Below are positions 2,525-22,075 of a DNA stretch of 32,000 nt, piece after piece. The notes beneath the pieces are model-generated. The model ran no database searches. It was not told the DNA's origin and saw only the letters and a program-made list of their open reading frames with translations. The DNA lies in contig CAZYLT010000004.1 of assembly GCA_964648855.1 (NCBI GenBank), forward strand, positions 169,532 through 201,531, read 5' to 3'. Numbering within the stretch: the first letter of the stretch is position 1; each line of letters opens with the position of its first letter. Source of the stretch: an uncultured archaeon (GTDB lineage: Archaea; Asgardarchaeota; Thorarchaeia; Thorarchaeales; Thorarchaeaceae). The position numbers were made by a program, and so were the translations under genes.

Positions 2525-2715
2525 CTTTTCACACCGCCGAATGTTACTGCAAACTACGATTTAGGCTTTTCCAGACGGATAATTCCAGATCGGGAAACTT
2601 ATTCACCATCTATGATTGACGGATAAACCCTCCCGGAACTGGAAGGACGACTGATAAATCCAAATATCCAATGCTATGTTGACTTATTATCATGCTGAAC
2701 TAGGGGGCGATTCTA

Positions 2716-3216
2716 ATGGAGCAGAAAGACCTGAAAGATAAAAACCAGCGAACCGTTTCCATTGGTCTACTCTTAATTCTTCTAATTTTGTTTTTCATCC
2801 TTCCAATCTCGATGGAAGTGTATGATGATTCACCTCTCAATATTTTCAGTGTCACGTGGACATTGCTTTATAACCCAAGAACCTCTGGTCGGACACTCAT
2901 ATTATGGCAACCTTCTGTCTGGATTATCGGAATAATGGCGAGCTTTCTGAGATTAGTATTCCTTCTTCAGATTGGTCGTTATTTTGCAGGAAAGACTACA
3001 CGTGCTCGCACGCTAGCACTCGGTCTACTGGCTGAACTACAGATGGCCCTTCTCTATGGTGGTTCACTGATCTACTCTACTCTAGTGCACGGACTGGCAC
3101 CATCTACCTTCCTCCTACCAACTCCCATCTTCCTGATCATTGGCTGGCTGTTCATACGAATCCATCCTCCGGAAAGGCACGAGCAACTATCGGATTGGCT
3201 TGACTACGAAAAATAG
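2716..3216 (+). CDS. Hypothetical membrane protein (about 4 TM)
   Basis: 166-aa hydrophobic ORF with a G-rich RBS (AGGGGG) before the ATG. Confidence 0.7.
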   Translation: MEQKDLKDKNQRTVSIGLLLILLILFFILPISMEVYDDSPLNIFSVTWTLLYNPRTSGRTLILWQPSVWIIGIMASFLRLVFLLQIGRYFAGKTTRARTLALGLLAELQMALLYGGSLIYSTLVHGLAPSTFLLPTPIFLIIGWLFIRIHPPERHEQLSDWLDYEK

Positions 3217-3246
3217 CCTCTGAATCTTCAAGTACTAAGAAAGAAA

Positions 3247-3618
3247 CTACAACCTAATCGGGTTCGGCCCTATCTCCCGAATTTTTTCAGCAAAATCGTT
3301 GATGTGCTTAGCAAACAGGTCTCCCTTAACCGCGCTCACGAACACCATTTTCACGCGTTTCTTGTTCATGTCCAGCTTATCGACCAACCATCGTGCAAAT
3401 CGCGCTCGTCTCTCGGCACCCAAGTTGCCGGTCTTGTAGGCACAGTCAACCGGGTACCAGCCCGCTATCAAGACACCGATTCTCCCCTCCTGGAGTGCCT
3501 TCATGATGAAATTGATATCAAGTTTCGCGGTGCAGGACATTCGGATGATTCGCGCGCTCACATCGTACTGTAACTTCATGGTTCCGGCAATATCCAACGC
3601 GGCGTACCTGCACTGCAT
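3247..3618 (-). pseudogene. mvhD: 5'-truncated, decayed mvhD fragment (copy 1, codons 14-136 of the intact gene)
   Basis: Colinear with 9200-9571. Lacks the first 13 codons including the first conserved Cys. Substitutions in conserved motifs: GWYPVDC for GCHPGDC, MSC for MPC, EGRIG for EGADG, SAVKG for SAAEG. Confidence 0.85.
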
Positions 3619-3627
3619 GATGAATTG

Positions 3628-4125
3628 CTAGTCACTAAAGCTTCTTGCTACGGATATTGCTTGTTTGTAGACCTTTGAATCCAACCTAAATCCTCGGTCA
3701 ATCATCCTGTCGAGAATTGATATGAATTCGTTATAGTGCAGCATGGATTTCGACAAGGCCTGGAGAAGGACTCCAACAGTTCCTAGACATGTTACTCCCA
3801 GAATTTCCGCAGCACTTCTTCCCAACTTGTCGTCTATCAGAAGCAGACCGTCCATCTCCCTAGCCAGTAAGATAGCTGCAGCCTCTCCTCTTTCAACTCC
3901 TGCGCCCTCGGCTAATTGCTCTACCTCGTCATGAGCTGAGTTTTCAACACGTAGCCATCCATCATGCACTGCAGAAGCTATCAATAGTGCATCCGGCGAG
4001 TTAGTAGATTCACCGGTCTCTTGGAAAACCTCCCTCGGAATCAACATCTCGGTGTATAGCTCTCTGAGCAGATGAAGTCGTCCTGACTTTGCGAGGTAGA
4101 TCAGTGGGCTCGCGTTACTGACCAC
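3628..4125 (-). CDS. PIN-domain (VapC-like, DUF3368-type) toxin
   Basis: VVSNASPLIYLAK, GEAAAILLA, LLLIDD and LGTVGVLL motifs. Overlaps the 3' end of the upstream antitoxin. Start uncertain: GTG 4125 preferred, ORF open to 4176. Confidence 0.88.
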   Translation of the reverse strand: MVSNASPLIYLAKSGRLHLLRELYTEMLIPREVFQETGESTNSPDALLIASAVHDGWLRVENSAHDEVEQLAEGAGVERGEAAAILLAREMDGLLLIDDKLGRSAAEILGVTCLGTVGVLLQALSKSMLHYNEFISILDRMIDRGFRLDSKVYKQAISVARSFSD

Positions 4126-4429
4126 TCTGTTGTTCTTTGACAAGAGCAAGGTCACGCTCCAGGTCCTCTTCGTCATACGAGATGGGTATTGCTGCCTTAT
4201 CCGCTTCTTCTATCATTTTTCTCAAGGGGAGTCCCGCCATGGATGCCGCCCTCCAGAGGGAAACCCTTCTCTCCCTGTACGCCTTGAGGGCTCTCTCTAG
4301 GAGAAACTGCTGAATGCCAATATCTAGTGCCCGCCGGATCATCTCCGACCTGTCAATCTGCTCTTCTCTGGCGATGAGCTCGAGCTTCTTGATGATCTCA
4401 TCGGGTAGTCGTACTGTGACTGTATCCAT
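4115..4429 (-). CDS. Antitoxin: ribbon-helix-helix (CopG-like) + UPF0175 domain
   Basis: MDTVTVRLPDE...DRSEMIRRAL (RHH) followed by YRERRVSLWRAASMAGL (UPF0175); coupled to the PIN gene. Confidence 0.88.
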   Translation of the reverse strand: MDTVTVRLPDEIIKKLELIAREEQIDRSEMIRRALDIGIQQFLLERALKAYRERRVSLWRAASMAGLPLRKMIEEADKAAIPISYDEEDLERDLALVKEQQSGQ

Positions 4430-4437
4430 CGTGTATC

Positions 4438-4462
4438 GTATACAATATATTATTTTGTATAC
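4438..4462. promoter_or_regulatory. Inverted-repeat operator / promoter of the TA operon
   Basis: GTATACAA (4438-4445)-N9-TTGTATAC (4455-4462) perfect inverted repeat in an AT-rich stretch just upstream of the RHH antitoxin ATG, typical of TA autoregulation. Confidence 0.6.
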
Positions 4463-4613
4463 ATAAAGCTTTGCTCCTCTCTTGCTCAGTCATAGACGTC
4501 TGTCAAGAAAGCCAATACCCTCTGCGTGTCGGCTCCTCTCTCACTTCTATCGTAAGACGAGTGCGTGAAACCCACAAATAGCATTCGATGTCATCTCAAA
4601 GGAGGTGGATACA

Positions 4614-5048
4614 GTGAATATTCGTCCCTTCAGTCCTGAGGATATTGCCTAGATTGTTTCTCTCACAAATGAGTATGCGTCATTTGACTCTGATGTGACT
4701 GCAGCTGATTTTTCCTCTGCCCACGCTTTTCCTCCAGGCCTACTTGTGGCCGAAGTGCACGGTCACATTGTGGCATTCATATTTGGCTATATCAAGGATG
4801 TACCGGGTACCATCCTGAATCGATGGAACGCACAAAGAGTAGCACAGATTGACCTCTTGGTGGTTGAACCATCCTATAGACGGCAAAGCATCGGTGAAAC
4901 ACTGATGCGCAAACTAGAAGAGACATTCCGAGAAGAAGATGTGGACCTGGTGTTGCTGCCCTACCCTGCTGAAGCTACAGAGGCAAAACACCTCTATGAC
5001 AAACTCGGTTTTGAGGTCCGTGCCTATGCCATGAAACAGTGCCTCTGA
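4614..5048 (+). pseudogene. GNAT-family N-acetyltransferase interrupted by an in-frame TAG at codon 13
   Basis: Strong RBS GGAGGTGG (4601-4608), then GTG 4614 giving MNIRPFSPEDIA*IVSLTNEY... in frame with the 4695-5048 ORF. GNAT motifs LVVEPSYRRQSIGETLM and AKHLYDKLGF. TAG at 4650-4652. Confidence 0.75.
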
Positions 5049-5051
5049 TCC

Positions 5052-5423
5052 CTAGAGCCGTATCGGGTTGGGTCCTATCTCTCGAATCGTGTCAGCAAAA
5101 TCGTTGATGTGCTTGGCGAACAGGTCACCCTCAGCCGCACTCACGAAGACCATCTTCACACGTTCCCTATTCATGCCCAGATTGTCCACCAACTCTCTGG
5201 CAAACCTGACCCTCCTCTCAGCCCCTAAGTTACCCGTCTTATACGCGCAGTCTCCTGGGTGACAACCCACCACCAACACACCGTCCGCGCCCTCCTGCAG
5301 CGCCTTCATGATGAAGTTGATGTCCAAACGTGCGGTACAGGGCATCCGGATAATCCGCGCACTCACGTCGTACTGGATCTTCATAGTCCCTGCGAGATCC
5401 GACGCGGCGTACATACATTGCAC
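5052..5423 (-). pseudogene. mvhD: 5'-truncated mvhD fragment (copy 2, codons 14-136)
   Basis: Near-identical protein to residues 14-136 of the 9200-9610 product (RMPCTARLD, GCHPGDC, SAAEG intact), but homology stops at the M14-equivalent codon and the first Cys is absent. Confidence 0.85.
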
Positions 5424-5498
5424 CAAATTCTTCTTATTGCCCAGATAGAAACTGATGGAATAGAAACCAAAATCAGTATCTATCCCTGGATAGATTCA

Positions 5499-6158
5499 TT
5501 ACCATATAGGCGAAGACGGAAAATCAGCGTCTTGCTTTTCGTATTTTCTTCGCATCTCTTTTTGCATTTTGTCAAACTCTTTTTGCTTAGATATATGAAT
5601 CAACGAATCCACGAACCCTATGGTCGTCTTGATGCCCCAGAAGTTGATATTCCTTTGTTTCCTATCTGCTTTCAAAGGACTTGAAATAATCCACTCCCCA
5701 TCCCTATGCACTACATCAACATACATCCATTCAAACCGTTTCTCTGTTCCTATGCGTCCAAGTATACTGGATACCAACCCAATTCCTACAGACGCGCCTT
5801 CTAAGTCGAGATCTTCGCTAATTTGACCTATTTTCTTTATTTTGTCAAGAAACATTCCACTACCGAGTTCTGTGTATATCTTGTTTTTCACATCGTGGCT
5901 GCGGAAGACACTCTTTTTCCCAAATAATTTAACCATAGGATGGTTTCTCGGAATAATTTCATGAACTACAAGCCAACAGGCATATGCCTTTGCAACCTCT
6001 TCTATTGCCAGATTCTTAAGCATCAATGCATGGGTCATCGACACATTTTGGGCAACAAGTGCTGCCTCTTTCACCAACGCTTTTGCATTCCTGAGGGACT
6101 CTATCATCGCCTCATGATACACTTCTCTTGGTGGCAATTTAGATGCCATTTGTAGCAC
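5499..6158 (-). CDS. AbiV-family abortive infection protein (HEPN-like)
   Basis: NAKALVKEAALV...LAIEEVAK...FRSHDVK matches the AbiV signature NAxxLxxxA...ExxxK...FxxHxxK. Start uncertain (ATG 6149 possible). Confidence 0.72.
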   Translation of the reverse strand: MLQMASKLPPREVYHEAMIESLRNAKALVKEAALVAQNVSMTHALMLKNLAIEEVAKAYACWLVVHEIIPRNHPMVKLFGKKSVFRSHDVKNKIYTELGSGMFLDKIKKIGQISEDLDLEGASVGIGLVSSILGRIGTEKRFEWMYVDVVHRDGEWIISSPLKADRKQRNINFWGIKTTIGFVDSLIHISKQKEFDKMQKEMRRKYEKQDADFPSSPIW

Positions 6159-6827
6159 CTATGCCATCTGAAGCAGAGCTCTCTCTTGCTCTTCAGGAAT
6201 CTCCTTGGCCTCGTCGGGGAAGTATCTCTTTTTGAGGAAATACTCCAATGTAGTTTCATCCATCTCATACAGAGCTGGGCGAGGCATCCAGACAATCAAA
6301 TCCTTCTTGTAGATGTATCCCTCTGCAATCTCGTCCTGGAACTGGAGAATCAGATCTAATGCCCTATCCACTGTCTTTCTGTTGACACCTGTCCGTCTGG
6401 CCAATTCTGCGATGGTCAGGTTGTCCTCTATCTGCAGCACCTTAAATAGCCTGTCCACTACCTCTTCGATTGAGGTTCTTCCCTCCGACTTGAACATCTC
6501 TCTTATTTCTGCTGTATCTGGCTTTTCATCACTCTCAGTGAAGAAGCGCTTCTCTATGTACCACTGACGCATCTCCTTTGGGAGTTTCATCTTATCCAGT
6601 CTGTCTTTGAGCCACACCATCTTTCCATAACCGCCCTCAAGCACTCTAATCTCGAATGCTGCGAACTGGTCCTGCTCTGTTATCAAGAAATTGACTGCCC
6701 GGTCAATCGCCCGCCAGTCAGTGCCACTCTTTTCTGCTATTTCCCGCAGCGAAATCGGGGAATTCGTCATCAAAACCTCCAGTGACCTCTCAATCGATTC
6801 CTCGAAAGTTGTCCGTCCTTTTGTCAT
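6159..6827 (-). CDS. Tandem-duplicated HTH DNA-binding protein
   Basis: Two homologous halves: GRTTFEESIERSLEVL...ISLREIAEKSGTDWRAIDRAV and GRTSIEEVVDRLFKVL...LTIAELARRTGVNRKTVDRAL. ATG 6827 preferred over the longer 6920 start. Confidence 0.75.
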   Translation of the reverse strand: MTKGRTTFEESIERSLEVLMTNSPISLREIAEKSGTDWRAIDRAVNFLITEQDQFAAFEIRVLEGGYGKMVWLKDRLDKMKLPKEMRQWYIEKRFFTESDEKPDTAEIREMFKSEGRTSIEEVVDRLFKVLQIEDNLTIAELARRTGVNRKTVDRALDLILQFQDEIAEGYIYKKDLIVWMPRPALYEMDETTLEYFLKKRYFPDEAKEIPEEQERALLQMA

Positions 6828-7090
6828 TACATCCACAATCCAATACACAAATACATCCAAATTCCTTCTTTTCACAATCCACCATATACTATACACGACA
6901 CATCTACAATTCCGTAACACATCATATTATACATTATATGACAACTATTATGCACAATAATCACGTATCATATACATTTAAATACTTTTGGCACACAAAA
7001 AAATATAAAATAACATTATAGTACTAAAAAAATACCCTAAAAGGGCAATTACTACGAATGATTTATAAGGATACTCTTCGCTAGCGAATT

Positions 7091-7393
7091 ATGCCTATCA
7101 AGAAAATCGACATCATAATCATGACTTGCATGTATGATGAAGATAGGATAGGCTCTCGCCATGGAAACATCGATAATATTCTCAAATTCTGTACTCCCAG
7201 GGAATATCGTGATCGATACCCCCTCGGAAAAATCAAGAAACGCATGCGAAAACTTGCCGGCCAAAACTATCTTATTCGGAAGACAGGTCGTTTTGAGGCA
7301 TACTCATTGAGCATGGATGGTGTAAGAGTTGCTGAGAGATGGAAAGAGGGATGGACAATTGACGAAATCAACAGAGGAAAAAGAAACATCTAG
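7091..7393 (+). CDS. Small basic winged-helix-like protein
   Basis: IKKRMRKLAGQNYLIRKTGRFEAYSLSMDG resembles a wHTH recognition helix plus wing (L...GYL...Y.LT..G). Confidence 0.55.
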   Translation: MPIKKIDIIIMTCMYDEDRIGSRHGNIDNILKFCTPREYRDRYPLGKIKKRMRKLAGQNYLIRKTGRFEAYSLSMDGVRVAERWKEGWTIDEINRGKRNI

Positions 7394-7931
7394 CAAACAA
7401 GAACCAGCGAATGCCCCCAAGGACACCAATCAATTCGATACTATGGAATTTGAGATGGCAGGTAATTCATTAAGAGCGCTGACAGTAATCTATGGTTTCT
7501 TCTTCGTATTTCTTTCCGCTATGGTTGCCGGATCTCCAACAATAAACTCCGTCTTGGACCCCAACAATTCATTTCTTTTCTATGTTTGTACCCTACTTCT
7601 GGCTATTGCTAATGCACTTATCGGGATAGAAATCTTCAGAATCATGATAATGATGAATATTTCATTTATCGGTGAATGGGGATTACGGTTGCTAATAGCA
7701 TCAGTTCCTAGTACGTTTGTTTTTGTTATTGGAATAACGACCCTGTCAGAAATTAGCATCTTTGATTTTGAATTCTATCCTGTAGGTAATTGGATTGCCA
7801 GTCTTTTGTTAGCCTTAATAATTCTATTAGTCGCATTCAAATTGAAGAAGGATCCGATAATCCAACAATCTACTGCAGACAAAAACGAGAGTGAAAAAGG
7901 TCGTCACAATCAAGAAGAGCAATCCAGTTAG
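7329..7931 (+). CDS. Hypothetical membrane protein (about 4 TM)
   Basis: Four hydrophobic segments; true start probably downstream of 7329. Confidence 0.65.
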   Translation: MLRDGKRDGQLTKSTEEKETSSKQEPANAPKDTNQFDTMEFEMAGNSLRALTVIYGFFFVFLSAMVAGSPTINSVLDPNNSFLFYVCTLLLAIANALIGIEIFRIMIMMNISFIGEWGLRLLIASVPSTFVFVIGITTLSEISIFDFEFYPVGNWIASLLLALIILLVAFKLKKDPIIQQSTADKNESEKGRHNQEEQSS

Positions 7932-8011
7932 TTTGAGGAGTGAGTTCTGAATGACGCACCTATGTATGGAGTATGTAAGATATATATCGCGGACAACTAA
8001 CCGCGAGGTGG

Positions 8012-9148
8012 GTGGCGAAATTGTCGTGGTATGAAGATGAAAACCCGAACCAAGTGTCTAGAGCCCATTTTGAGCTTGCCATAGATCTTGCAGAGAAATG
8101 CAAACCTGAATGGCCTGGCAAGATGGCTCCTAAGGTCGGAGCGGTTGTTATTAGAAAGGGCGAGATTATTGCTCAGGCTTACAGAAATCAGATTGGTAGT
8201 GGGGATCATGCGGAATATATTGCCCTTGAGCAAAGACGAGGTGACCGAGTTGATTTCAAAGGAACGGACTTGATAACAACTCTGGAACCGTGTACAGAAA
8301 AACGACATGGCAAAATGAAGAAACCCTGTGTTGATTGGGTTAGGTATCGTAGGATACGAAAAGTATGGATTGGCGTCTTGGATCGCAATCCGCGTATTCG
8401 AGGCAAGGCAGTGATGCGACTGCATGACTTAGGTATTTACGTGGGTTGGTTTCCTGATGACTTGGTGCCAAGAATACTAGCTCAGAATGAGGAATTCTTT
8501 GAGCATGCTAGGCGAATGACTCCTCAGCTGACAGCCGATGAGCTTGAAGCGCGCAGGAAGGAAGTGCAAGACCTCGCGCTTCATGAACTATCTGCTTATG
8601 AGCGGGATTTGAAAACTATTGATCTGCCACCCCAATTGAAGCAACTACCTATGGATTCAATTCAAAGTGCTATCAACGCTCTAGCAACAATGAACTTGCA
8701 TGATGTCGATGAGTGGGCTAAAGTGGGTTGGGATCTTCTTTCTGCTCACGTGTCTGCAAAACTACTTCTCGAAGGACACGACCAATTGCCGTTCCGAACA
8801 GAAATGGTTTCTGAAATTCTACAGGGCAATCTCAGTATGGATGAAATAGAATCTTCATCTGGAAGAAGCGATGGTAGGCCCCCGACAATTGCACCCGCTG
8901 GAAGAGCATTTACTACTGCAATGCAAGTAGATAGCACTAACACTCAATCGATAATTGGGAAGAGCGCTGTATTCCTGCTAATGGACGAGCCGATACGGGC
9001 TATGGAAACTCTCGAGATTGGCAGGAATTACATAGCCACACCCAACTCAAGGGTTGTCCATCTCTACAGAGATATTGGTGTTCAACTTCGCAAAATAGGC
9101 AATGTTAGATGGCGTCTTGCTTATGACCGGGCTAAAGACTTCGAGTAA
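8012..9148 (+). CDS. Zn-dependent cytidine/RibD-type deaminase domain fused to an uncharacterised helical C-terminal region
   Basis: PKVGAVVIR, HAE, TTLEPC-x9-PC and LDRNPRIRG motifs of the RibD-like deaminase fold. No RibD reductase domain. RBS GAGGTGG before GTG. Confidence 0.8.
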   Translation: MAKLSWYEDENPNQVSRAHFELAIDLAEKCKPEWPGKMAPKVGAVVIRKGEIIAQAYRNQIGSGDHAEYIALEQRRGDRVDFKGTDLITTLEPCTEKRHGKMKKPCVDWVRYRRIRKVWIGVLDRNPRIRGKAVMRLHDLGIYVGWFPDDLVPRILAQNEEFFEHARRMTPQLTADELEARRKEVQDLALHELSAYERDLKTIDLPPQLKQLPMDSIQSAINALATMNLHDVDEWAKVGWDLLSAHVSAKLLLEGHDQLPFRTEMVSEILQGNLSMDEIESSSGRSDGRPPTIAPAGRAFTTAMQVDSTNTQSIIGKSAVFLLMDEPIRAMETLEIGRNYIATPNSRVVHLYRDIGVQLRKIGNVRWRLAYDRAKDFE

Positions 9149-9199
9149 ACCCAACAAGCTGAAAAGAATTGCCATCAATAAATACTATATCTGCTTCGA

Positions 9200-9610
9200 T
9201 TATAGTCGAATGGGATTGGGACCAATCTCGCGAATCTTGTCTGCGAAGTCGTTGATCTCCTTCGCAAACTTCTCCCCTTCAGCCGCGCTCACGAACACCA
9301 TCTTCACCCGCTCCTTGTTCATGCCCAGTTTATCAACAAGTTCCCTGGCGAACCTGACCCGTCTCTCAGCTCCGAGATTGCCTGTCTTGTATGCGCAATC
9401 ACCGGGATGGCAACCAACAATCAGAACCCCATCTGCACCTTCCTGAAGCGCCTTCATAATGAAATTGATATCGAGCCTAGCAGTACAGGGCATCCGGATG
9501 ATCCGCGCGCTCACGTCGTACTGGATCTTCATCGTTCCGGCCAAGTCTGCAGCCGCATAACAGCACTGCATGCAGCCGAAGATGACGATGTTCATGTCTT
9601 TAGGGGGCAT
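9200..9610 (-). CDS. mvhD: Methyl-viologen-reducing hydrogenase delta subunit / hydrogenase iron-sulfur subunit (intact copy)
   Basis: IVIFGCMQCCYAAADLAG, RMPCTARLD, GADGVLIVGCHPGDC, VSAAEG and GPNPI motifs. RBS GAGG and a TATA-like element upstream. Confidence 0.93.
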   Translation of the reverse strand: MPPKDMNIVIFGCMQCCYAAADLAGTMKIQYDVSARIIRMPCTARLDINFIMKALQEGADGVLIVGCHPGDCAYKTGNLGAERRVRFARELVDKLGMNKERVKMVFVSAAEGEKFAKEINDFADKIREIGPNPIRL

Positions 9611-9744
9611 AGGTAATAGATAACCTCACTCTTGTGATTCTGGATTGATTTTCTTCCTCCATATAATCTTTCAGTCGTAGAATAAGCTTTGATTTGTGGC
9701 AAAGCCACTTATTTTTTCTAAATCCAAATATTTTGGATGCATGC

Positions 9745-9995
9745 ACCGACCCGAATCAGGTCTGGGTAGAGGGTGAGCGAACCCCCTCGGTGACCGTCAA
9801 CTCCCGTGTTCCACCCTGCTCGCGACCGCTGTCACCAGCGAACCCGGAGACCTCTCCCCGAGCCTGTACACGAGCTTTATCCGAGCAACCCTCGGATGGA
9901 GTTTCACTCCGCTGCACACTATTGCCATGACTATCAGTAGCCTTGCGGGCGTCGATGGTGGCAGACGGCTGTTCCACGGTTCTTCCCACGGCAGG
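9745..9995 (-). ncRNA. Putative omegaRNA/reRNA scaffold overlapping the tnpB 3' end
   Basis: Dense hairpins within the low-complexity tail codons: GAGGG/CCCTC (9769-9788), GGAG/CTCC (9846-9857), ATCCGAG/CTCGGAT (9879-9897), GGAGT/ACTCC (9898-9910) and a closed domain at 9920-9993. TnpB guide RNAs are known to overlap the gene 3' end. Boundaries approximate. Confidence 0.55.
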
Positions 9996-11531
9996 GTCGG
10001 TAGTGCTCACAAACTCTGCAAGCAGGGTCTGGTCATGGCACTCGGCCGCGGACCGCCCCCGTGAAGCTGATCTCTTCGAGGACGGTTCGGACTTCTCGTT
10101 AGAGCGTGTTCTCCTCCGAGCCTTCAAGCTTGCCTGTTTCTTCTCATTAGGAAACAACCAACGCTCTAGTCCGGTCTCATTCGTAAGTGAAGGAATGAGC
10201 TTGATGAGGCGCCGGGCGATGTTGATGGCGCCGTTCTTGTCGGCATTGGAGCGATAGCCACAGGTGGTACATATGAAGAGGGACTGCTTCGGCCTGACTC
10301 CCTTGGAACCACAGCGGTGGCAGATGATTGATGTCCAGGACTCAGGGACAGGAACGAAGTGCGAGTCCTTCCCATCCACCCTCCAACCCTCTTGGACAAG
10401 AGCGTGCTTGAGCCCCTCGCTGACTCGTGCAAAGGTCCAGCGAGCCACCTTCTTTCTGAAGGACTTGCTCTTGCCACTCTTTCTTCCTGCGCTACGGCGG
10501 ATGTTGGTGAGGCGACCAATGGCCACATAGAGGTCATACTTCTTGGAGAGCTCGAGGATATGGGTGGTGAGCTCTCGGACGAGCACACCATCAAAGTCAG
10601 TACTGATGTTAGCACGGCGGCTGCGAAGTTCCTTGAGGCGCTCCGCCACACCGTCGTACGGCCACCCTGCATTCTTCCGGTCACACATCTCTCGTTGTAG
10701 AGCGTCAACCATCTCATCGTACCGCTCTATGTGACTGATCTTTTCCGGTTGCGTGAAGTAGCGTACGTATCTCACCCGTTGTTCAGTCAGCACAACAGAA
10801 CAGACCGCCTTGTCAATACCGAGATCAATACCCAACACTGCTGGAGGCAGACCAGTCATGTCAACCACCTCCACCTCCACTCTTACAGCAAACACAACCC
10901 ACCATTTACGACGGGCGTCCTTGAAGAGCCTCAGGGATGTGACCTCACCCTCATCCAATCTGTTCAGATGATAGGAAGAGGGATTCAAAGGAATACGCAA
11001 TCTATCATGGGTCCAGCTATCCGTCTGTGCAGAGTCCAAGGAGTCCAACAGGTTCAGCCAATGCTTTGTTTCCTGTCCCCGTCTATATTCTAGCTTGAAT
11101 CTCCTGGCATATACATACCGGGGAAGCTTCCTTGCTCGATACCCCTGTGCCTTGAGCGGGGGCTGTCCTCCCAGCTCAAGATAGCTGTTCCACATGGCAG
11201 CCGCAACTTGCCTGCACTCCTGCAGCTCGTTGGTTGAGATGTTTGGGAATCTCTTCTTGAAGTCATGAGGAACAGACAGTCTTCTCTTAGCTGGGTCCTT
11301 GAACCGCTCCGCGGTGAGGGTCAACTTCTCCAGTGCTCCACCATTGATCCGTTTTCGTTTCTTACCGACAATGAGTTCTTTCTCGTGACGCGCAATGACC
11401 CCAAGAAACGCCCGGATGACTCGTGTATCCCGTCCGGTCAATCTCTCCAACCTAGACCTATCAGCATCACTCATGCAGTTCCATTTCACAGGAACTTTCA
11501 CACTGATGATTACAGTCTGGCTCTCGGGCAT
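9756..11531 (-). CDS. tnpB: TnpB/Cas12f-family RNA-guided endonuclease with rearranged RuvC-II and long C-terminal tail
   Basis: RuvC-I VLGIDLG, Zn ribbon CHRC...CTTC, RuvC-III NADKNGAINIA. The canonical RuvC-II position reads VAIGRL, and an alternative Glu occurs in VPESWTS. ATG 11531 (MPESQ) preferred, ORF open to 11627. No tnpA nearby. Confidence 0.88.
   Translation of the reverse strand: MPESQTVIISVKVPVKWNCMSDADRSRLERLTGRDTRVIRAFLGVIARHEKELIVGKKRKRINGGALEKLTLTAERFKDPAKRRLSVPHDFKKRFPNISTNELQECRQVAAAMWNSYLELGGQPPLKAQGYRARKLPRYVYARRFKLEYRRGQETKHWLNLLDSLDSAQTDSWTHDRLRIPLNPSSYHLNRLDEGEVTSLRLFKDARRKWWVVFAVRVEVEVVDMTGLPPAVLGIDLGIDKAVCSVVLTEQRVRYVRYFTQPEKISHIERYDEMVDALQREMCDRKNAGWPYDGVAERLKELRSRRANISTDFDGVLVRELTTHILELSKKYDLYVAIGRLTNIRRSAGRKSGKSKSFRKKVARWTFARVSEGLKHALVQEGWRVDGKDSHFVPVPESWTSIICHRCGSKGVRPKQSLFICTTCGYRSNADKNGAINIARRLIKLIPSLTNETGLERWLFPNEKKQASLKARRRTRSNEKSEPSSKRSASRGRSAAECHDQTLLAEFVSTTDPAVGRTVEQPSATIDARKATDSHGNSVQRSETPSEGCSDKARVQARGEVSGFAGDSGREQGGTRELTVTEGVRSPSTQT
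9920..9993 (+). repeat. 74-bp direct repeat, copy A (copy B at 21642-21715)
   Basis: TATTGCCATGACTATCAGTAGCCTTGCGGGCGTCGATGGTGGCAGACGGCTGTTCCACGGTTCTTCCCACGGCA; 73/74 identical to copy B. Confidence 0.95.
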
Positions 11532-11544
11532 GTGCATCACTTGA

Positions 11545-11655
11545 CAATTTAAACTTCCGACCTGTCTTGTGTCAGAAGGGAGTTCACTCAGCTCTCTATG
11601 CAAGAGATTGAATGATAATCTCCACACATTCTATAGTATCAGGCAATTTAAACTT
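11545..11655 (-). promoter_or_regulatory. Two identical TATA-like boxes upstream of tnpB
   Basis: CAATTTAAACTT at 11545-11556 and 11644-11655 (AAGTTTAAATTG on the minus strand, BRE/TATA-like). Confidence 0.45.
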
Positions 11656-11784: not shown

Positions 11785-14700
11785 ATGGCTCATTTTGGGT
11801 CTCCCAAGCAGCCAAACAAGGTCCTCATCACTGCCTTCAAGCGTGGGATGGCAGGGACATTGGCTCTCGCACGGGACCGTGCCACGGGAGTTGTCCGACC
11901 ATTGTACTATGGGGATAACCGTGTGAAGGGCATGGCGAAGATCTGGGATGAGGCCAAGACGGCCTATCGCGAAACCCATGACCGGGACAGGCAGCGCAGG
12001 TCGGCCTCCTATCGACAGAGCTTGACCCCAGACCAGCTTGAGGAACTGGACAGGAGGGTCCTCCCTGATAGCAGACTTCTCCTGATGGCGGAGAACAACA
12101 TCCGGCGCAACTTCTACCGCATTATGTTGAAGACAGCCGTCAAATATGGCAACAAAGAGACCAAACGTGTCAAGCGTGGCGAGGGGCCACAGGGATACCT
12201 CAACCTGCTCTGGGACTATGCAGGAAGTAGAATCCGTGATGTCTGCAAGGCCCGGTACTTCTTTCCGCCGCCCACAGAGCTCAAGCTCGTAGATGGGTCT
12301 GAGGGGGTAGGGTATCCCTCCCTTGGAGGACAACCTGCATACTTCCTGAACCACGATAACCTCCCCGAACTGGACTTTGGAGACATGATACGAAGCCACC
12401 TGGTCGAGCTAGCTCGACAGTGCATGAAGTACAATGTGCCTCTCAGGCCAGCAAAACGGTACATCGATCAGCTACTAAACAGGCTTCTTCCGTTTCTGGA
12501 CTATGTCTATACTGGAAGAAAAACCGGGCGGTCCAACTTTGTCCGAGAGGGATTAGAAGAACTACGAGATGTGGTGGATAGAATCAGTATACTCTATGGC
12601 ATGCGAAACGGCCGAGCTCCCTCTATCACCACCATGGTTGCAGTCGATACAGAGGTGACATTGTCGGACGCTGATGTGCCTATGGTTGAAGAGTATCCAG
12701 ATTGCGTCACTGAACCTCAGCTCGAGAACATGCCTCATATACCCGTAGAGAATGTCATAACCACTGATACCTCAATCGAAGAAGATATTGAGTATCCAAC
12801 CACTCCGAACTTTTTTACAACCATTGTTGGAAGAGCGGAGGACAAGGGTGTTGATGAGTGGAGCGATGCTCTGGATACGCTCAAGCAATTGCTGGATGAG
12901 GGCATCCTAGACAAAGAGGACGCCGCACAGATTCTGAAGCAGGCAAAAGAGGAGAGCAGAAGAATCGGCAGTGCATTCCATGACTTTGTATCAAAGGGCT
13001 TTCCCAGTCCCTTCGTGATGAGTGCAGTGGTCCATCATGGAGATGAGATGGTACGGGATAGGTCCGGTCTCCTGATAGTATCCGAGTTAGGCGTTGCAGG
13101 AGGACAGGGACGAGTTGACCTTGCCCTCTTCAGACGAAAGCTCTTGCCAAGTGTGGATGAGGCCCCGCCACAAATCGTCTATGAACCCTGCATGGTTGTT
13201 GAGATAAAGACGAAGAGCGCCTTTGAACTCGATATCTATGGGGTGAGGTCCAAGAGTGAGAAGGAGAAGAATGTTGTCAGCGAATTCCTACTGGAGAGAA
13301 GGAGGCTCACTGACGAAGAGTGGATGGACATACGGGGAAGTATCTCTCCCGAGAGTGTGAAACAGATTGAGCTCTACAGTGAAGCCATACTGAATGAGTA
13401 CCAACGAGTGGCATGGATAGATTCCAAGCCGCCAAACGAACTAATCAAAGCGGTTGTTTCGGTCGATTCAACAGAAACGTGGAATGAAGCTCGTGACGCA
13501 CTGCATGCCGTGATTATCGAAGGCTACGAGATGGCCATGAATAATGGAATTTCCACAGGCGATGTTCTTCAGGTCAGCGAGAATGGAATCCCGCTGAGAT
13601 TGGTCATGCATATGGTATCAGATAGCTGTTCAGCCACTGAAGTGGAGCCACCTGCTAAGAGAGAAGAAAACAATCCGTTCTGTAAACATCAGGATGATGG
13701 ATTGGAATTCATTATGTATCTCTCCGTGTCCGGTCGTGGCTCCCCCTCAGAGTCTGCTGCAACAATAGCAGAGAGATGGCACGGTCTGAAGTATCTCTAC
13801 GATATGGCGCATTACAAGCACAGGGATATCATATGGTTCGACATGAATGGCGAAATCGCAGACCCGCTGCTCGGAAAGCACAGGCTGAGGTTGGCGTTCC
13901 ATGATGCATCCGTCCAGCGCTTCTTCAAGAGACGCGTCAAGGTTGTGGACATGTCCTTCACTATTGCTGAGTACTTGCATGGCAGGCAAACGAGCCGAGT
14001 AATTAGAAAATTGATTAAAGATAATGTGACTAATGCCAAGAAACCAATTGTGGTGGTAAGTGGTTGGAACTCATTGTGGCGAAGAACTGGGCCATATCAG
14101 AATCCCTTGTTGGGCGCGATACTCCTGCTCTTCCTGTCGGAGGTTTCTAAAGGTGGAACGATTCTGTGGTTCAATCGTCCGGTTCCTCTCTCTGATAATA
14201 GCTCCGTGTACCAGACAAAATGCGTGGCACCGTTCTATACCAATTCTCAATGGGAGGGTTTTATCGATAGAATCGTCTGGAATCTCCCTCTGCCTCCACA
14301 GAGGTCAAGGTCATTTACGCCTGCGGATGATTGTATCAGAGTGTCTATTATGGAAGCACCAGGTGAAACGGTCATCTCGGAGCGAATCCATATCCTCCCT
14401 CTTGAGGGATGGGGAGAAACCTTCCGGTCAGAGCCCCAAACCCCCTACGTTTCGATGATGTATTCTAAGGGAGCAGGTTTCGCAGGCTCAATGCAGACCT
14501 TAGCACAGTCTGTTGATTATGAAGATGTGTATGATCTCTTACCGCACCTCCAAGATTCTGCGATTACAGATAGCATCCCTGAAAAAGCCAGGTATGTAGT
14601 TGAAAAAGCACATGTATCGTCACGGATTCAAGATATGCACGAGTCCATCAATCTAATCAATTTCCGACCCTATCAATTTCAAGAGCGACTGGAGAGAAAC

Positions 14701-17274
14701 AAGCGGTACAAGAAGCTGCTGCCGATAGATCAGATTACGCAGAAGCGCGAATACCGAACCATGACACTTGGTGTGGAGGAACCCCAGAGAAATACAAGGC
14801 CTCCGTCTGAAGACATGCTGATAGCATGTGATGTTGATGATATTGACATAGCCCTATCCGAGGTACGTGGCCTGAAAAAGGCCATCTCATTCCTCTTAAA
14901 CCAAGAATCTCCTCCAAGCCACATTGTGAGATTGTGTGAAGAACTACTGGATATCATTGAGCCAACAGATGCTACTCAATCTAGTCAGAAGGTCATGAAC
15001 AGACTGCGCCTAGTTAGACAGACTCTTGAGAATGACATATCCACGCAAAATAGTTGGACGCAGCTAGAACCGTATCGGATGCAAGCGCATCGTCAACTGA
15101 AACCGCATATCCGAGCTCACATCGAGCAGCTGTCCCAAAGACATCCTGATATCATGCTCATCACGGGAAATCATCTCTTTTTGATGTTGCATGCTGCACT
15201 CAATACGATTCCTTCCAGCATCCATCTACGAACTCTGGATCTTCTGTGGCAATACCTTGTTCCTTGGCATTATACAAGACTTGGACTCAGTCCAGAATAC
15301 AGGTATGGAACACATGCTGGCCGGTCAGTATTAGACCGTCATGTGCTCTTTGAGAGACTGAAGTCGCGAGCCTTAGCATTGAATGCTCTGATTGCCGAAG
15401 ACATCTCTCTAAGGAGTGTTCGGATGGGGCAGGTGATAATCCGAAGAACAGGATTAGAGCAGGAGCCGTTGGCGACATGGCTGATCTTCCAGAGAACCAT
15501 GGGAGGGACTGAGATGAACGCGGCGCTCATCACACCCTATGCTTTAGACCCAGGCGAGGCGCCATATGAGCTTCTCAAGGGCCTTATTTCGGATGCGCCC
15601 TTCTGGAGTGAGAGTGACATCAGCAGACTAGCAGACTCTGCACGTAGTGAAAAGAAGGATATCAGAGTGCCGCTGATGATTGCCAACCAGAAGGATATGC
15701 AGCTTCTCTTTGTACGGCACCAAGATAGTGATGTCTGGATGCCAGTAGGACGAATCGAGTATACGAGTCATGCATTCCAGAGTGTGACATTGATTAGAAC
15801 GCTGCAGATACGTGCAGAGGAACAGGCAGTTCCGGTTTCTACGAACGCAGTTCCTAAATCCCTCTTGGACACTCAAGACTTGGTTGATGTTGCCCTTCTT
15901 GTCATTCGTCGAGGTCTGGGTGAACCAGTCAATGCGAAATGTCACATCTCGTTGGACCATGAGAGAGGAAGCTATCATATTTTCTTTGAGGTAGCAGAGG
16001 AGGATGATAATGAATCGGAAGCTTTGGCATTGACCATCAAGAGCACCATTGAGTTGGTTGCACTACTCAGGAAGCCAGACTATCAGTGTGAGCCCGTGGT
16101 CATTGACGGGAAACGGCTCATCTGGAACCGATTTCAGGACATCACCTATCATGAAGATGTGCAACTCATCCGTCCATGGGTGGAGAGAAGGAATCCATTT
16201 CCACACCTGGCGATGGAGTTGCCACCGAGTGCTGAGGACCTCCTCGCTGCCAAACAGGACTTCAATATCAGAGTGGAGCCCCATCACGACCCGTGGGTGT
16301 GCCCCCTTCGACATGTTTCCAAGGAGGACATAGAGAGACAGCAGCGCCTTGCTCCAGTGGCAAATATGCACTATCTCTTCCGTTATGAGATTCCTGTCGG
16401 AACACCGAAACGCCTCCTTGATGAAACAGGACTAAGACATGGTTCCTGCTGGGGTATCCGAATCCATACACCTCACTCGCTTCCGATGGAGCTTCAGGAC
16501 CTGATGTCAGTTCGTTTCACCGCTGCTCAGCTCGCGACACTCGTGCGGTCGAGTGAGATTGTCTACTGGTCGAACGAGCAACAGGAGTGGATTGTTCACT
16601 CGATGGATCTCGTGTGGAGAAACCATGTCATCTCGGAAGCCCAGGAGGCCTGGCATCTCAGACGAGTCATTGAGGAGTACCTCGGGCAAGAACTGGAACT
16701 AGTGAAACCGGGAACCTATCTGCAGAAACAGGAACGATGGTGCCCCTACTTCATCATTGAGCAAGAGAGAGTAGTAGTGGGTCTGGAGCGGGGTGCAACA
16801 AAGGAGAAACGAGAGCGGGTGCTTAGAGAGAGGAATGTTGCTCTCCGAGCAAGAGAAGAGGTCGAGAACATCCTCAGTCAGGGCATGACTACGCTTCTTG
16901 ATGAGCAGGGCATCACTCCCGACAGAAGACTCCAGAGTGATATTAGAAACGAGATAGTATTCATACTTGAGGAGGCAGTGACATCAGGAGAGGACATGAA
17001 ATTGACCTACTCAGGAGCAATGATCCGCAGAGATGAGGTCGGAGGTAGGCGGGTTTATGTCATCTTTGAATCTCCTTATGATGAATACTATCTACCAGTT
17101 ACTCCTCATCTTCATGATATTGCAAGAATTGAACATCTTATACCCTCAGAGGTTCGAAATGATATCAAATGTCAACTCGAAACCCATCCCTTTCGTAAGT
17201 CGGATATAGAAGAAGCAGTTGCAGGAGTGATGGGTTTACTTAGGGACGAAGGACTGTCGCACTCCAAGGAATGA
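11785..17274 (+). CDS. Very large (1829 aa) multidomain protein with a PD-(D/E)XK (RecB/Cas4-like) nuclease domain and a probable degenerate P-loop ATPase domain
   Basis: Uninterrupted 5.5-kb ORF. SE434...GRVD445...VVE473IK...Q527IELY nuclease motifs. Then IMYLSVSGRGSPSES, IIWFDMNGE and PIVVVSG, resembling decayed HerA/VirB4-like motifs. TATA (TATATATAAATA) about 25 bp upstream suggests a leaderless transcript. Confidence 0.8.
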   Translation: MAHFGSPKQPNKVLITAFKRGMAGTLALARDRATGVVRPLYYGDNRVKGMAKIWDEAKTAYRETHDRDRQRRSASYRQSLTPDQLEELDRRVLPDSRLLLMAENNIRRNFYRIMLKTAVKYGNKETKRVKRGEGPQGYLNLLWDYAGSRIRDVCKARYFFPPPTELKLVDGSEGVGYPSLGGQPAYFLNHDNLPELDFGDMIRSHLVELARQCMKYNVPLRPAKRYIDQLLNRLLPFLDYVYTGRKTGRSNFVREGLEELRDVVDRISILYGMRNGRAPSITTMVAVDTEVTLSDADVPMVEEYPDCVTEPQLENMPHIPVENVITTDTSIEEDIEYPTTPNFFTTIVGRAEDKGVDEWSDALDTLKQLLDEGILDKEDAAQILKQAKEESRRIGSAFHDFVSKGFPSPFVMSAVVHHGDEMVRDRSGLLIVSELGVAGGQGRVDLALFRRKLLPSVDEAPPQIVYEPCMVVEIKTKSAFELDIYGVRSKSEKEKNVVSEFLLERRRLTDEEWMDIRGSISPESVKQIELYSEAILNEYQRVAWIDSKPPNELIKAVVSVDSTETWNEARDALHAVIIEGYEMAMNNGISTGDVLQVSENGIPLRLVMHMVSDSCSATEVEPPAKREENNPFCKHQDDGLEFIMYLSVSGRGSPSESAATIAERWHGLKYLYDMAHYKHRDIIWFDMNGEIADPLLGKHRLRLAFHDASVQRFFKRRVKVVDMSFTIAEYLHGRQTSRVIRKLIKDNVTNAKKPIVVVSGWNSLWRRTGPYQNPLLGAILLLFLSEVSKGGTILWFNRPVPLSDNSSVYQTKCVAPFYTNSQWEGFIDRIVWNLPLPPQRSRSFTPADDCIRVSIMEAPGETVISERIHILPLEGWGETFRSEPQTPYVSMMYSKGAGFAGSMQTLAQSVDYEDVYDLLPHLQDSAITDSIPEKARYVVEKAHVSSRIQDMHESINLINFRPYQFQERLERNKRYKKLLPIDQITQKREYRTMTLGVEEPQRNTRPPSEDMLIACDVDDIDIALSEVRGLKKAISFLLNQESPPSHIVRLCEELLDIIEPTDATQSSQKVMNRLRLVRQTLENDISTQNSWTQLEPYRMQAHRQLKPHIRAHIEQLSQRHPDIMLITGNHLFLMLHAALNTIPSSIHLRTLDLLWQYLVPWHYTRLGLSPEYRYGTHAGRSVLDRHVLFERLKSRALALNALIAEDISLRSVRMGQVIIRRTGLEQEPLATWLIFQRTMGGTEMNAALITPYALDPGEAPYELLKGLISDAPFWSESDISRLADSARSEKKDIRVPLMIANQKDMQLLFVRHQDSDVWMPVGRIEYTSHAFQSVTLIRTLQIRAEEQAVPVSTNAVPKSLLDTQDLVDVALLVIRRGLGEPVNAKCHISLDHERGSYHIFFEVAEEDDNESEALALTIKSTIELVALLRKPDYQCEPVVIDGKRLIWNRFQDITYHEDVQLIRPWVERRNPFPHLAMELPPSAEDLLAAKQDFNIRVEPHHDPWVCPLRHVSKEDIERQQRLAPVANMHYLFRYEIPVGTPKRLLDETGLRHGSCWGIRIHTPHSLPMELQDLMSVRFTAAQLATLVRSSEIVYWSNEQQEWIVHSMDLVWRNHVISEAQEAWHLRRVIEEYLGQELELVKPGTYLQKQERWCPYFIIEQERVVVGLERGATKEKRERVLRERNVALRAREEVENILSQGMTTLLDEQGITPDRRLQSDIRNEIVFILEEAVTSGEDMKLTYSGAMIRRDEVGGRRVYVIFESPYDEYYLPVTPHLHDIARIEHLIPSEVRNDIKCQLETHPFRKSDIEEAVAGVMGLLRDEGLSHSKE

Positions 17275-21583: not shown

Positions 21584-21641
21584 TTTGATTCACCAGCTAT
21601 TCCAGTTTGAATTTTGATAAATTCTCGGGCATGCTACACCT

Positions 21642-21715
21642 TATTGCCATGACTATCAGTAGCCTTTCGGGCGTCGATGGTGGCAGACGGCTGTTCCACG
21701 GTTCTTCCCACGGCA
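21642..21715 (+). repeat. 74-bp direct repeat, copy B (copy of tnpB 3' region)
   Basis: 73/74 identical to 9920-9993; intergenic. Confidence 0.95.
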
Positions 21716-21739: not shown

Positions 21740-22075
21740 TTACTTCTCAGTCTTAGCTAGCAGGTCTAGCTGAAGTGCATTTGCAGTCACAATGAAGCTG
21801 CCGGTCCACTCAGGAAAGTCCGGTTCATTTCCTTGGTCCAGCATCTCTCTCCATGCCTCATCGGTTAGACGGTTGCTTACTGGTTGAGTGAACTCATAAT
21901 ATGAGAAAGTGCCTCCCCGCACCAGCTGTCCATTGATTGGAACTGCCACAATGATGATATGTGGGTTTCCTACAGCCTTTTCTAGAACCTCCATGGTGTT
22001 GGGGTCTGTGTGCACATCCGCCACGAGTGACATATACTTGTCAATACCAGAGGTGATCAATGGATCTTCGGGCAA
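21740..22075 (-). pseudogene. C-terminal fragment of a DUF3160-family protein
   Basis: LVADVHTDPN...VLE.AVG...RGGTFSYYEFTQP...RLTDEAWREML is the recognisable C-terminus of the large DUF3160 proteins. No upstream portion is present. Confidence 0.7.

Follow-up and report, generated by a model that had tools for sequence, protein, structure and literature searches.

Displaced ends of a stand-alone mvhD gene and their cargo form an accretion array at a family-wide hotspot in Thorarchaeota

The window analysed here is a stretch of 32,000 nucleotides (nt) from the genome of an uncultured archaeon of the Thorarchaeaceae (assembly GCA_964648855.1, contig CAZYLT010000004.1, positions 169,532 to 201,531). 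Read on the minus strand, it carries an intact mvhD gene followed by two blocks of cargo genes, each closed by a copy of mvhD that lacks its 5' end. In its anatomy this is an accretion array built of displaced gene ends, and across the family the site is a hotspot. On mechanism, the evidence is split between host homologous recombination and a site-specific step. We favour, with about an even chance of being right, an accretion array of displaced mvhD ends that is cycled mainly by homologous recombination between the repeats and whose boundary is inherited by descent.

The mvhD sequences of the window, all on the minus strand, are the following:

9659..9672, minus strand: TATA-like promoter element of mvhD, GAAAGATTATATGG, which every aligned TnpB-mvhD locus retains
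9200..9610, minus strand: intact stand-alone mvhD, the anchor gene, 136 amino acids (aa), identified with Pfam FlpD and solved MvhD chains
9569..9574, minus strand: boundary of codons 13 and 14 (TGC, then ATG) in intact mvhD, where the homology of every fragment begins according to the junction tables
9571-9200, minus strand: 'active' 3' segment of intact mvhD, codons 14-136
5052..5423, minus strand: mvhD fragment 1, codons 14-136 and the stop codon, 372 bp
3247..3618, minus strand: mvhD fragment 2, 372 bp including the stop codon, the most distal and most decayed copy

A first-pass annotation, made from the letters alone, had proposed this layout, and both the open reading frame listing and a repeat search reproduced it. 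The intact gene matches positions 1-123 of the Pfam FlpD/MvhD profile PF02662 (E=4e-48) and aligns with solved MvhD chains (E=3.5e-41), with C13, C16, C42, C67 and C72 in register. Fragment 1 is 92% identical to it in protein and 76% in DNA, and fragment 2 is 82% and 73% identical, respectively. The first codon of each corresponds to M14 (the three copies read ATGCAGTGC, GTGCAATGT and ATGCAGTGC from the boundary onwards), and both run exactly to the mvhD stop codon, while the flanks of the three copies are unrelated on either side. The fragments had also been described as lacking the promoter and the first cysteine ligand; they have no TATA-like box, and the conserved Cys13 is missing along with the rest of codons 1-13, its role as a ligand being putative. 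Of the 79 positions at which intact genes never vary, fragment 1 has changed none and fragment 2 has changed 12, including GCHPGDC to GWYPVDC, in which the conserved Cys67 has become Trp. A 7.4-kb Logan contig, built separately from sequencing run X1, spans positions 2600-9975 with zero differences to the window. Run X1 may be the sample from which the window was assembled; because this contig covers the region identically, the array layout is no assembly accident.

The genome that contains the window (G000) is 3.1 Mb long and 94.6% complete; FlpD domains occur at eight of its loci, two of which are the window's own fragments. The array mvhD is a stand-alone paralog, approximately 45% identical to the other FlpD loci of G000, which sit in long open frames (~500-1,200 aa) and are possible fusions. 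No mvh hydrogenase or hdr genes were found beside it in the mvhD neighbourhoods examined. Upstream of mvhD, some loci have a TnpB gene and others a loose cluster encoding an iron-sulfur/helix-turn-helix (HTH) protein, an acyl-CoA dehydrogenase, a cupin and an unknown protein. To call the anchor a core energy-metabolism gene, as the first-pass annotation did, is therefore an overstatement: it is one of eight such loci, standing alone and outside any mvh/hdr operon.

To place the array in its family, truncated copies were tabulated in 86 Thorarchaeota genomes and 50 metagenome loci. An mvhD ortholog is present in 68 of the 86 genomes (77-92% identity). The same codon-14 breakpoint recurs in at least 13 of these 68, in six genera (g1, g3, g5, g6, g7 and g12), and in 19 of the 50 metagenome loci. 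Codon-14 fragments were found in G000, G001, G003, G012, G021, G022, G048, G049, G050, G063, G071, G077, G095 and G096, and arrays hold up to four or five repeats (G022). In every array, the truncated copies share the orientation of the intact gene and lie downstream of it. No fragment in the junction census starts within codons 17-51. Twelve of the 14 shorter remnants begin at scattered positions from codon 98 to codon 119; a second fixed breakpoint for short remnants was considered and rejected on this account. Fragments fall into two length classes (123 codons or fewer than about 40), and remnants of the last 20-40 codons are far commoner than intermediate lengths. Such short 3' remnants occur at loci L010, L011, L013, L041, L049, L052, L055, L057, L060, L067, L077 and L086.

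The sequence past the stop codon goes with the 3' segment that precedes it, which defines the unit as codons 14-136 and the stop followed by cargo. In the sister genome G001, an intact mvhD is followed by GNAT/RHH/PIN genes and a fragment, that is, the window minus its first cargo block. The intact gene of G001 and its cargo thus match fragment 1 of the window and the cargo behind it, the cargo at 84% DNA identity. Likewise, the K1/HTH cargo that follows the intact gene of G049 is the cargo that follows fragment 1 of G022. Segment and cargo are collinear between genomes, which upholds the idea that an incoming unit brings a replacement 3' end. Close relatives differ at the promoter-proximal slot (the window and G001, G022 and G049, L077 and L049). 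Between close relatives, a divergence step at codon 14 is not resolvable, the promoter region itself being conserved. The recurrence in relatives supports the first-pass view of mvhD as a repeated landing or accretion site.

The cargo of the window comprises two blocks, in which the transmembrane (TM), HTH and ribbon-helix-helix (RHH) proteins are named by their predicted features:

5424..9199, read on the minus strand: cargo block A, with deaminase, 4-TM protein, basic protein, tandem-HTH protein and AbiV
8012-9148, plus strand: deaminase of block A (Pfam)
7329-7931, plus strand: 4-TM membrane protein of block A (hydropathy scan)
7091-7393, plus strand: 100-aa basic protein of block A (no family match)
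6159-6920, minus strand: tandem-HTH protein of block A (Pfam)
5499-6158, minus strand: HEPN AbiV protein of block A (Pfam)
3619..5051, read on the minus strand: cargo block B, with GNAT, RHH/UPF0175 and PIN-DUF3368
4695-5048, plus strand: GNAT protein of block B (Pfam)
4115-4429, minus strand: RHH_1 and UPF0175 antitoxin of block B (Pfam)
3628-4176, minus strand: PIN-DUF3368 toxin of block B (Pfam; PADLOC PDC-S70, E=1e-33)

The first-pass list of cargo stands for the deaminase, membrane protein, tandem HTH, AbiV, GNAT and RHH/PIN genes; its winged-HTH label for 7091-7393 stays putative, this protein being without a family match. In block B, the RHH/UPF0175 gene overlaps the PIN-DUF3368 gene, an arrangement that qualifies the pair as a type II toxin-antitoxin system. 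PDC-S70, which the PIN-DUF3368 protein matches, is a PADLOC candidate defence system. The RHH/UPF0175 and PIN pair is also the commonest cassette of the mvhD arrays (9 loci). Across 27 arrays, the cargo families are VapBC, RHH/PIN, K1 with tandem-HTH, AbiV, GNAT and methyltransferase, together with a prenyltransferase-repeat protein, a CAAX-protease-like protein, a beta-helix protein, SatD, DUF1684 and unknowns. Cassette genes lie in both orientations, and some have their own TATA-like box.

In the mechanism that we favour, an incoming unit would carry mvhD codons 14-136, the stop codon and cargo, and its 3' segment would become the end of the expressed gene. The former 3' end would be shifted downstream as a promoter-less fragment, later to decay or to be trimmed to a short remnant. 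Units would be gained, lost, duplicated and exchanged mainly by host homologous recombination between the 369-bp repeats. Possible routes are the loop-out of circles made of a repeat and its cargo, Campbell-type re-insertion into any mvhD copy, double crossover with two repeats as arms, and gene conversion. The codon-14 boundary would be passed on with the repeat rather than cut afresh each time. We infer that a circular intermediate and transfer between cells are involved and that no dedicated enzyme is needed. Four lines of evidence lead us to favour this mechanism: the mosaic repeats and the hybrid gene described below, the lack of recombinases, the lack of a constrained site, and the clustering of copies by genus.

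The copies bear marks of exchange with one another. The intact gene and fragment 1 of G022 are identical over 137 nt and then differ at 46 positions, and the copies of G049 share an identical block of 255 nt. Such mosaics within genomes point to gene conversion or crossover, and they back the homology-driven mechanism that the first-pass annotation had named among its options. L049 and L077 come from near-identical strains whose cargo is 99.3% identical, L049 having one unit fewer. Its intact gene is a patchwork of the two repeats of L077 over nt 15-122 and equals the second repeat from there on, as would be expected of a loop-out crossover inside the repeat. Fragments carry the genus-specific residues of the local intact gene and cluster with it; separate lineages of 'intact' and 'fragment' alleles were looked for and not seen.

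The boundary shows no constraint at the DNA level. Synonymous positions near codon 14 vary freely among 60 intact genes, so that nothing beyond the amino acids G-C-M-Q-C is constrained there. No attC-type site was found: the repeat is mvhD coding sequence, nothing is conserved outside it, and the window has no Rfam match.

Selection on the fragments was assessed from intact-fragment pairs of the same genome. Their ratio of nonsynonymous to synonymous substitution rates (dN/dS) is 0.005-0.1, and their nucleotide and amino acid differences resemble those of orthologs from different genomes. For most of their history, therefore, the fragments have been selected as coding sequence. PIN-adjacent fragments of different genera are nearly as conserved in protein as intact genes. 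A special process of 'synonymous recoding' was rejected because the differences fall within the range of ortholog pairs. Distal copies tend toward more decay, with stops, frameshifts and truncations; G022 and G050 are exceptions. A long mutated fragment may be a hazard, being able to recombine with the working gene. Such a hazard would account for fragments being either pristine or under ~120 bp, for the low dN/dS and for the gap at intermediate lengths.

Several observations weigh against a cycle driven by homologous recombination alone. About 25 long fragments start exactly at codon 14 (ATGCARTGY), behind at least 10 unrelated upstream contexts, which include the end of a PIN gene, three vapB promoter regions and two AbiV ends, among others. 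Homologous recombination alone would spread such junctions without creating any. The codon-14 boundary is also where tracts of identity often start, as if breaks occurred there. Homologous cassettes of different genera are only 65-85% identical in nucleotide sequence, so recent transfer between genera is not supported. Neither a circular form nor a transfer vehicle was seen. The population data also pose a difficulty. The window stretch is present in four runs of one microbial-mat study, X1 to X4, the last sampled three years later; no RNA dataset is listed as containing it. In X2 and X3, the depth of block A is ~75-80% of that of its flanks. In X4 it falls to 5-7, against 16-36 for the flanks, which places the block in about a fifth of the population. 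These depth differences indicate that block A is polymorphic in the source population. Yet in X4 both flanking mvhD copies remain at full depth while block A is rare, and one contig joins position 5422 to 9200, the exact two ends of the block. A simple repeat-by-repeat loop-out predicts neither. The joint may hide other cargo, given that a pattern search of the 86 family genomes retrieved no empty junction of stop codon and codon 14.

Some of these observations speak for site-specific capture in trans, in which an unrecognised recombinase or nuclease from elsewhere in the genome, or from a transient virus or plasmid, acts between codons 13 and 14. The cassettes would then be passengers comparable to cis-mobilizable elements (CIMEs), and homologous recombination would only blur the copies later. 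We consider this possible, though it falls well short of probable. In its favour are the identical breakpoint in unrelated contexts and six genera, the differing promoter-proximal slots of close relatives, the conversion tracts that begin at the boundary and the cargo-precise joint in X4. The crossover that separates L049 from L077, however, lies inside the repeat and not at codon 14, and the wobble positions at the site are unconstrained.

The enzyme that capture in trans calls for was sought in the arrays, the family genomes and viral contigs. As the first-pass annotation had stated, neither block A nor block B contains an integrase or transposase, and no recombinase of any known kind was found in the cargo of the 27 arrays. 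A search of G000 for a trans-acting recombinase, which that annotation had proposed, gave no match to PF00589 (tyrosine), PF00239 (serine) or PF01797 (Y1), while control genomes did match. In the absence of PF00589, no XerA-type enzyme was found in G000 either. PF00589 occurs in only 29 of the 86 family genomes, never near mvhD, and is absent from most array-bearing genomes. Among the unknown cargo and neighbouring families (L031, K13, K20, K35 and others), no recombinase-like Pfam match was seen. No integrase-bearing element was found at the mvhD site in ~110 loci, and a self-integrating element of the e14 type was not shown. No viral contig with a piece of mvhD was found. A cognate integrase of an integrative and conjugative element (ICE) or an integrative and mobilizable element (IME) was not found in the family genomes, viral contigs or 50 metagenome loci, where transient elements could be missed.

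One candidate enzyme lies next to the array. A TnpB-like gene of 623 aa (9756-11627, minus strand) is located just upstream of mvhD. As the driver of the arrays, TnpB was rejected: it stands beside 6 of 19 arrays and 10 of 30 single-copy loci, and the sequence after the right end of the element, where the guide would lie, does not match mvhD, which also counts against capture in trans by this neighbour. An 8-mer, TGCATGCA, that the TnpB-like gene shares with mvhD codons 13-15 belongs to the conserved right end of the TnpB insertion sequence; it occurs 48 times in the genome, which is its chance frequency, and was discarded as a link between the two.

The TnpB neighbourhood has features of its own. 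Homologs of the window's TnpB carry names that put the window in Thorarchaeota, an Asgard group. A TnpB-like gene of 570-620 aa lies directly upstream of mvhD in at least eight genera, and TnpB was recorded at loci L009, L010, L014, L017, L020, L024, L030, L037, L058, L065, L066, L070, L071 and L074. It has diverged (45-91% aa) in step with host genes, which would fit a gene fixed at this place or one inserted there repeatedly. The tail of the gene and the sequence downstream (9731-9993) form a conserved scaffold resembling an omega-RNA and ending in GGTCGGTGCATGCWTCCAA. The most conserved block of this scaffold is an 83-bp repeat (9911-9993) with a 95% identical copy at 21633-21715. That copy stands alone 11.7 kb away; its neighbour is a DUF3160 gene fragment from the 3' end (21740-22075, profile positions 550-632 of 632). 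G000 also contains another, decayed copy of the TnpB element (contig C16:525-1142) and three TnpB paralogs, 44% identical, on contigs C19, C21 and C28, two of which abut tRNA-like sequence. A variant in run X4 skips 72 nt in the low-complexity TnpB tail (10247-10320). Head-to-head with the TnpB gene lies a gene for a protein of 1829 aa (11785-17274, plus strand) with no Pfam or PADLOC match, which is kept beside TnpB in several genera (23-86% aa).

A stronger version of the site-specific step would make the array a dedicated gene-capture platform of Thorarchaeota, an integron analogue built differently, in which an unrecognised enzyme acts between codons 13 and 14, the modules bring or are given a working gene end and silent ends are kept in shape by being regularly swapped back. 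We hold this reading to be doubtful. A literal 'integron-like' system, one of the options of the first-pass annotation, is contradicted by the genome, which has no IntI or PF00589 match, by the lack of an attC-like constrained site and by cassettes in both orientations.

The remaining explanations do without cassette behaviour or without displaced ends, and both are improbable. In the first, the locus is an ordinary variable region that arose by one ancient partial duplication of mvhD, followed by vertical descent and random gain and loss of neighbouring genes. Cassettes do diverge like host genes (PIN 48-80% aa, FTR1 49-86%; cargo 65-85% nt), and the junction of RHH/PIN and fragment is common to five genera. 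Such a history fits poorly with arrays of up to four or five repeats in which the same cargo families occur in differing orders; the 4-TM protein, for instance, precedes the HTH/AbiV genes in the window and follows the fragment in G049. VapBC units occur in duplicate with a repeat for each, members of a single population differ in whether they have block A, and neutral fragments would have been randomised over family-level time. We therefore regard this history as quite unlikely.

The least probable explanation takes the 'fragments' as genes, that is, N-terminally shortened MvhD-like proteins starting at M14 (ATG or GTG) or M17, expressed with the cassette and selected. Consistent with this are the low dN/dS and the many pristine copies, a first codon of ATG or GTG in ~75% of long fragments (GTG was not among the variants at codon 14 of the individually read intact genes, and 53 of 60 intact genes have ATG there) and PIN-type junctions that put the fragment 4-9 nt past the PIN stop on the same strand. 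It is hard to reconcile with a quarter of the fragments having non-start first codons (ATA, TCG, AGG, CTG, GCA), with several carrying stops, frameshifts or internal deletions or being trimmed to 20-40 codons, with the loss of Cys67 in the most distal window copy, and with the constant downstream, same-orientation placement, for which it offers no reason; such proteins would also lack Cys13 and the preceding N-terminal segment, which reads as a first strand in the alignment to solved MvhD chains.

The large genomes of Asgard archaea are mosaic but hold few mobile-element enzymes of the kind that explains gene gain in bacteria, and two thirds of the Thorarchaeota family genomes have no tyrosine recombinase match at all. 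The mvhD array, in which toxin-antitoxin and defence-type genes gather, is a concrete, testable case of accessory genes being taken up and shuffled without a recombinase in Asgard genomes. If portable coding repeats of 369 bp suffice, cassette mobility would be simple and might occur behind further conserved genes as well. A site-specific enzyme, if one takes part, would be one not yet recognised. If the array is a capture platform, capture would never cost the host its mvhD gene. Under any of these, it is a natural record of silent copies kept intact or trimmed under the risk of recombination with a working gene.

We found no literature that names mvhD as an attachment site or describes this array, and papers on Asgard mobile elements and defensomes are silent on mvhD. 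Several known systems share parts of its design. When e14 or phage 21 enters icd in Escherichia coli, the incoming DNA carries a replacement 3' end, so that the gene stays whole and the old end lies at the far side. The displaced icd end differs mostly at synonymous sites, and e14, a prophage, encodes its own integrase and is inserted once. Similarly, mvhD units carry the 3' end of their target up to the stop codon, and at their far junction stands the old, displaced end. The arrays differ in being tandem units of 0.5-4 kb, with no integrase or excisionase in the 27 examined.

Integrons, which have been reported in Archaea too (PMC9668308), resemble the mvhD arrays as polar arrays of small cassettes of one or two genes, rich in toxin-antitoxin systems and apparently growing promoter-proximally. 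The mvhD arrays, however, have no IntI, no folded attI/attC sites and no common promoter, and both tests that define an integron came out negative.

CIMEs of the ICESt1/ICESt3 family occupy the 3' ends of fda, rpsI and rpmG in streptococci (PMC7563491). They comprise integrase-less cargo blocks of 1-13 kb and empty 'microCIMEs', in tandem at the 3' end of a protein gene (PMC7563491). In both systems, integrase-free cargo between repeats is stacked in tandem where a conserved gene ends, and the gene is kept whole. The attachment (att) repeats of CIMEs are short and are used by the tyrosine integrase of a cognate ICE or IME in the same species (PMC7563491), whereas the mvhD repeat is 369 bp of coding sequence and no cognate integrase element was found in the ~110 loci.

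Arrays of displaced C-terminal ends, or orphans, are known from Rhs, contact-dependent inhibition (CDI) and the effector-immunity clusters of the Vibrio cholerae type VI secretion system (T6SS) (PMC5361080 and the Rhs papers cited therein). These orphan arrays are integrase-free, and homologous recombination, possibly homology-facilitated illegitimate recombination, has been invoked for them (PMC5361080). Orphans can recombine back into the main gene, and growth takes place at the gene-proximal end (PMC5361080). There, as at mvhD, an intact gene is followed by 5'-truncated 3' copies with cargo between them. In Rhs, CDI and T6SS, the displaced ends are variable toxin domains, with their matching immunity genes as cargo, whereas the mvhD ends are conserved (82-92% protein identity), have cargo with no relation to mvhD and share one fixed codon as breakpoint. 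CIME accretion and the C-terminal displacement arrays of Rhs, CDI and T6SS are the closest known kinds.

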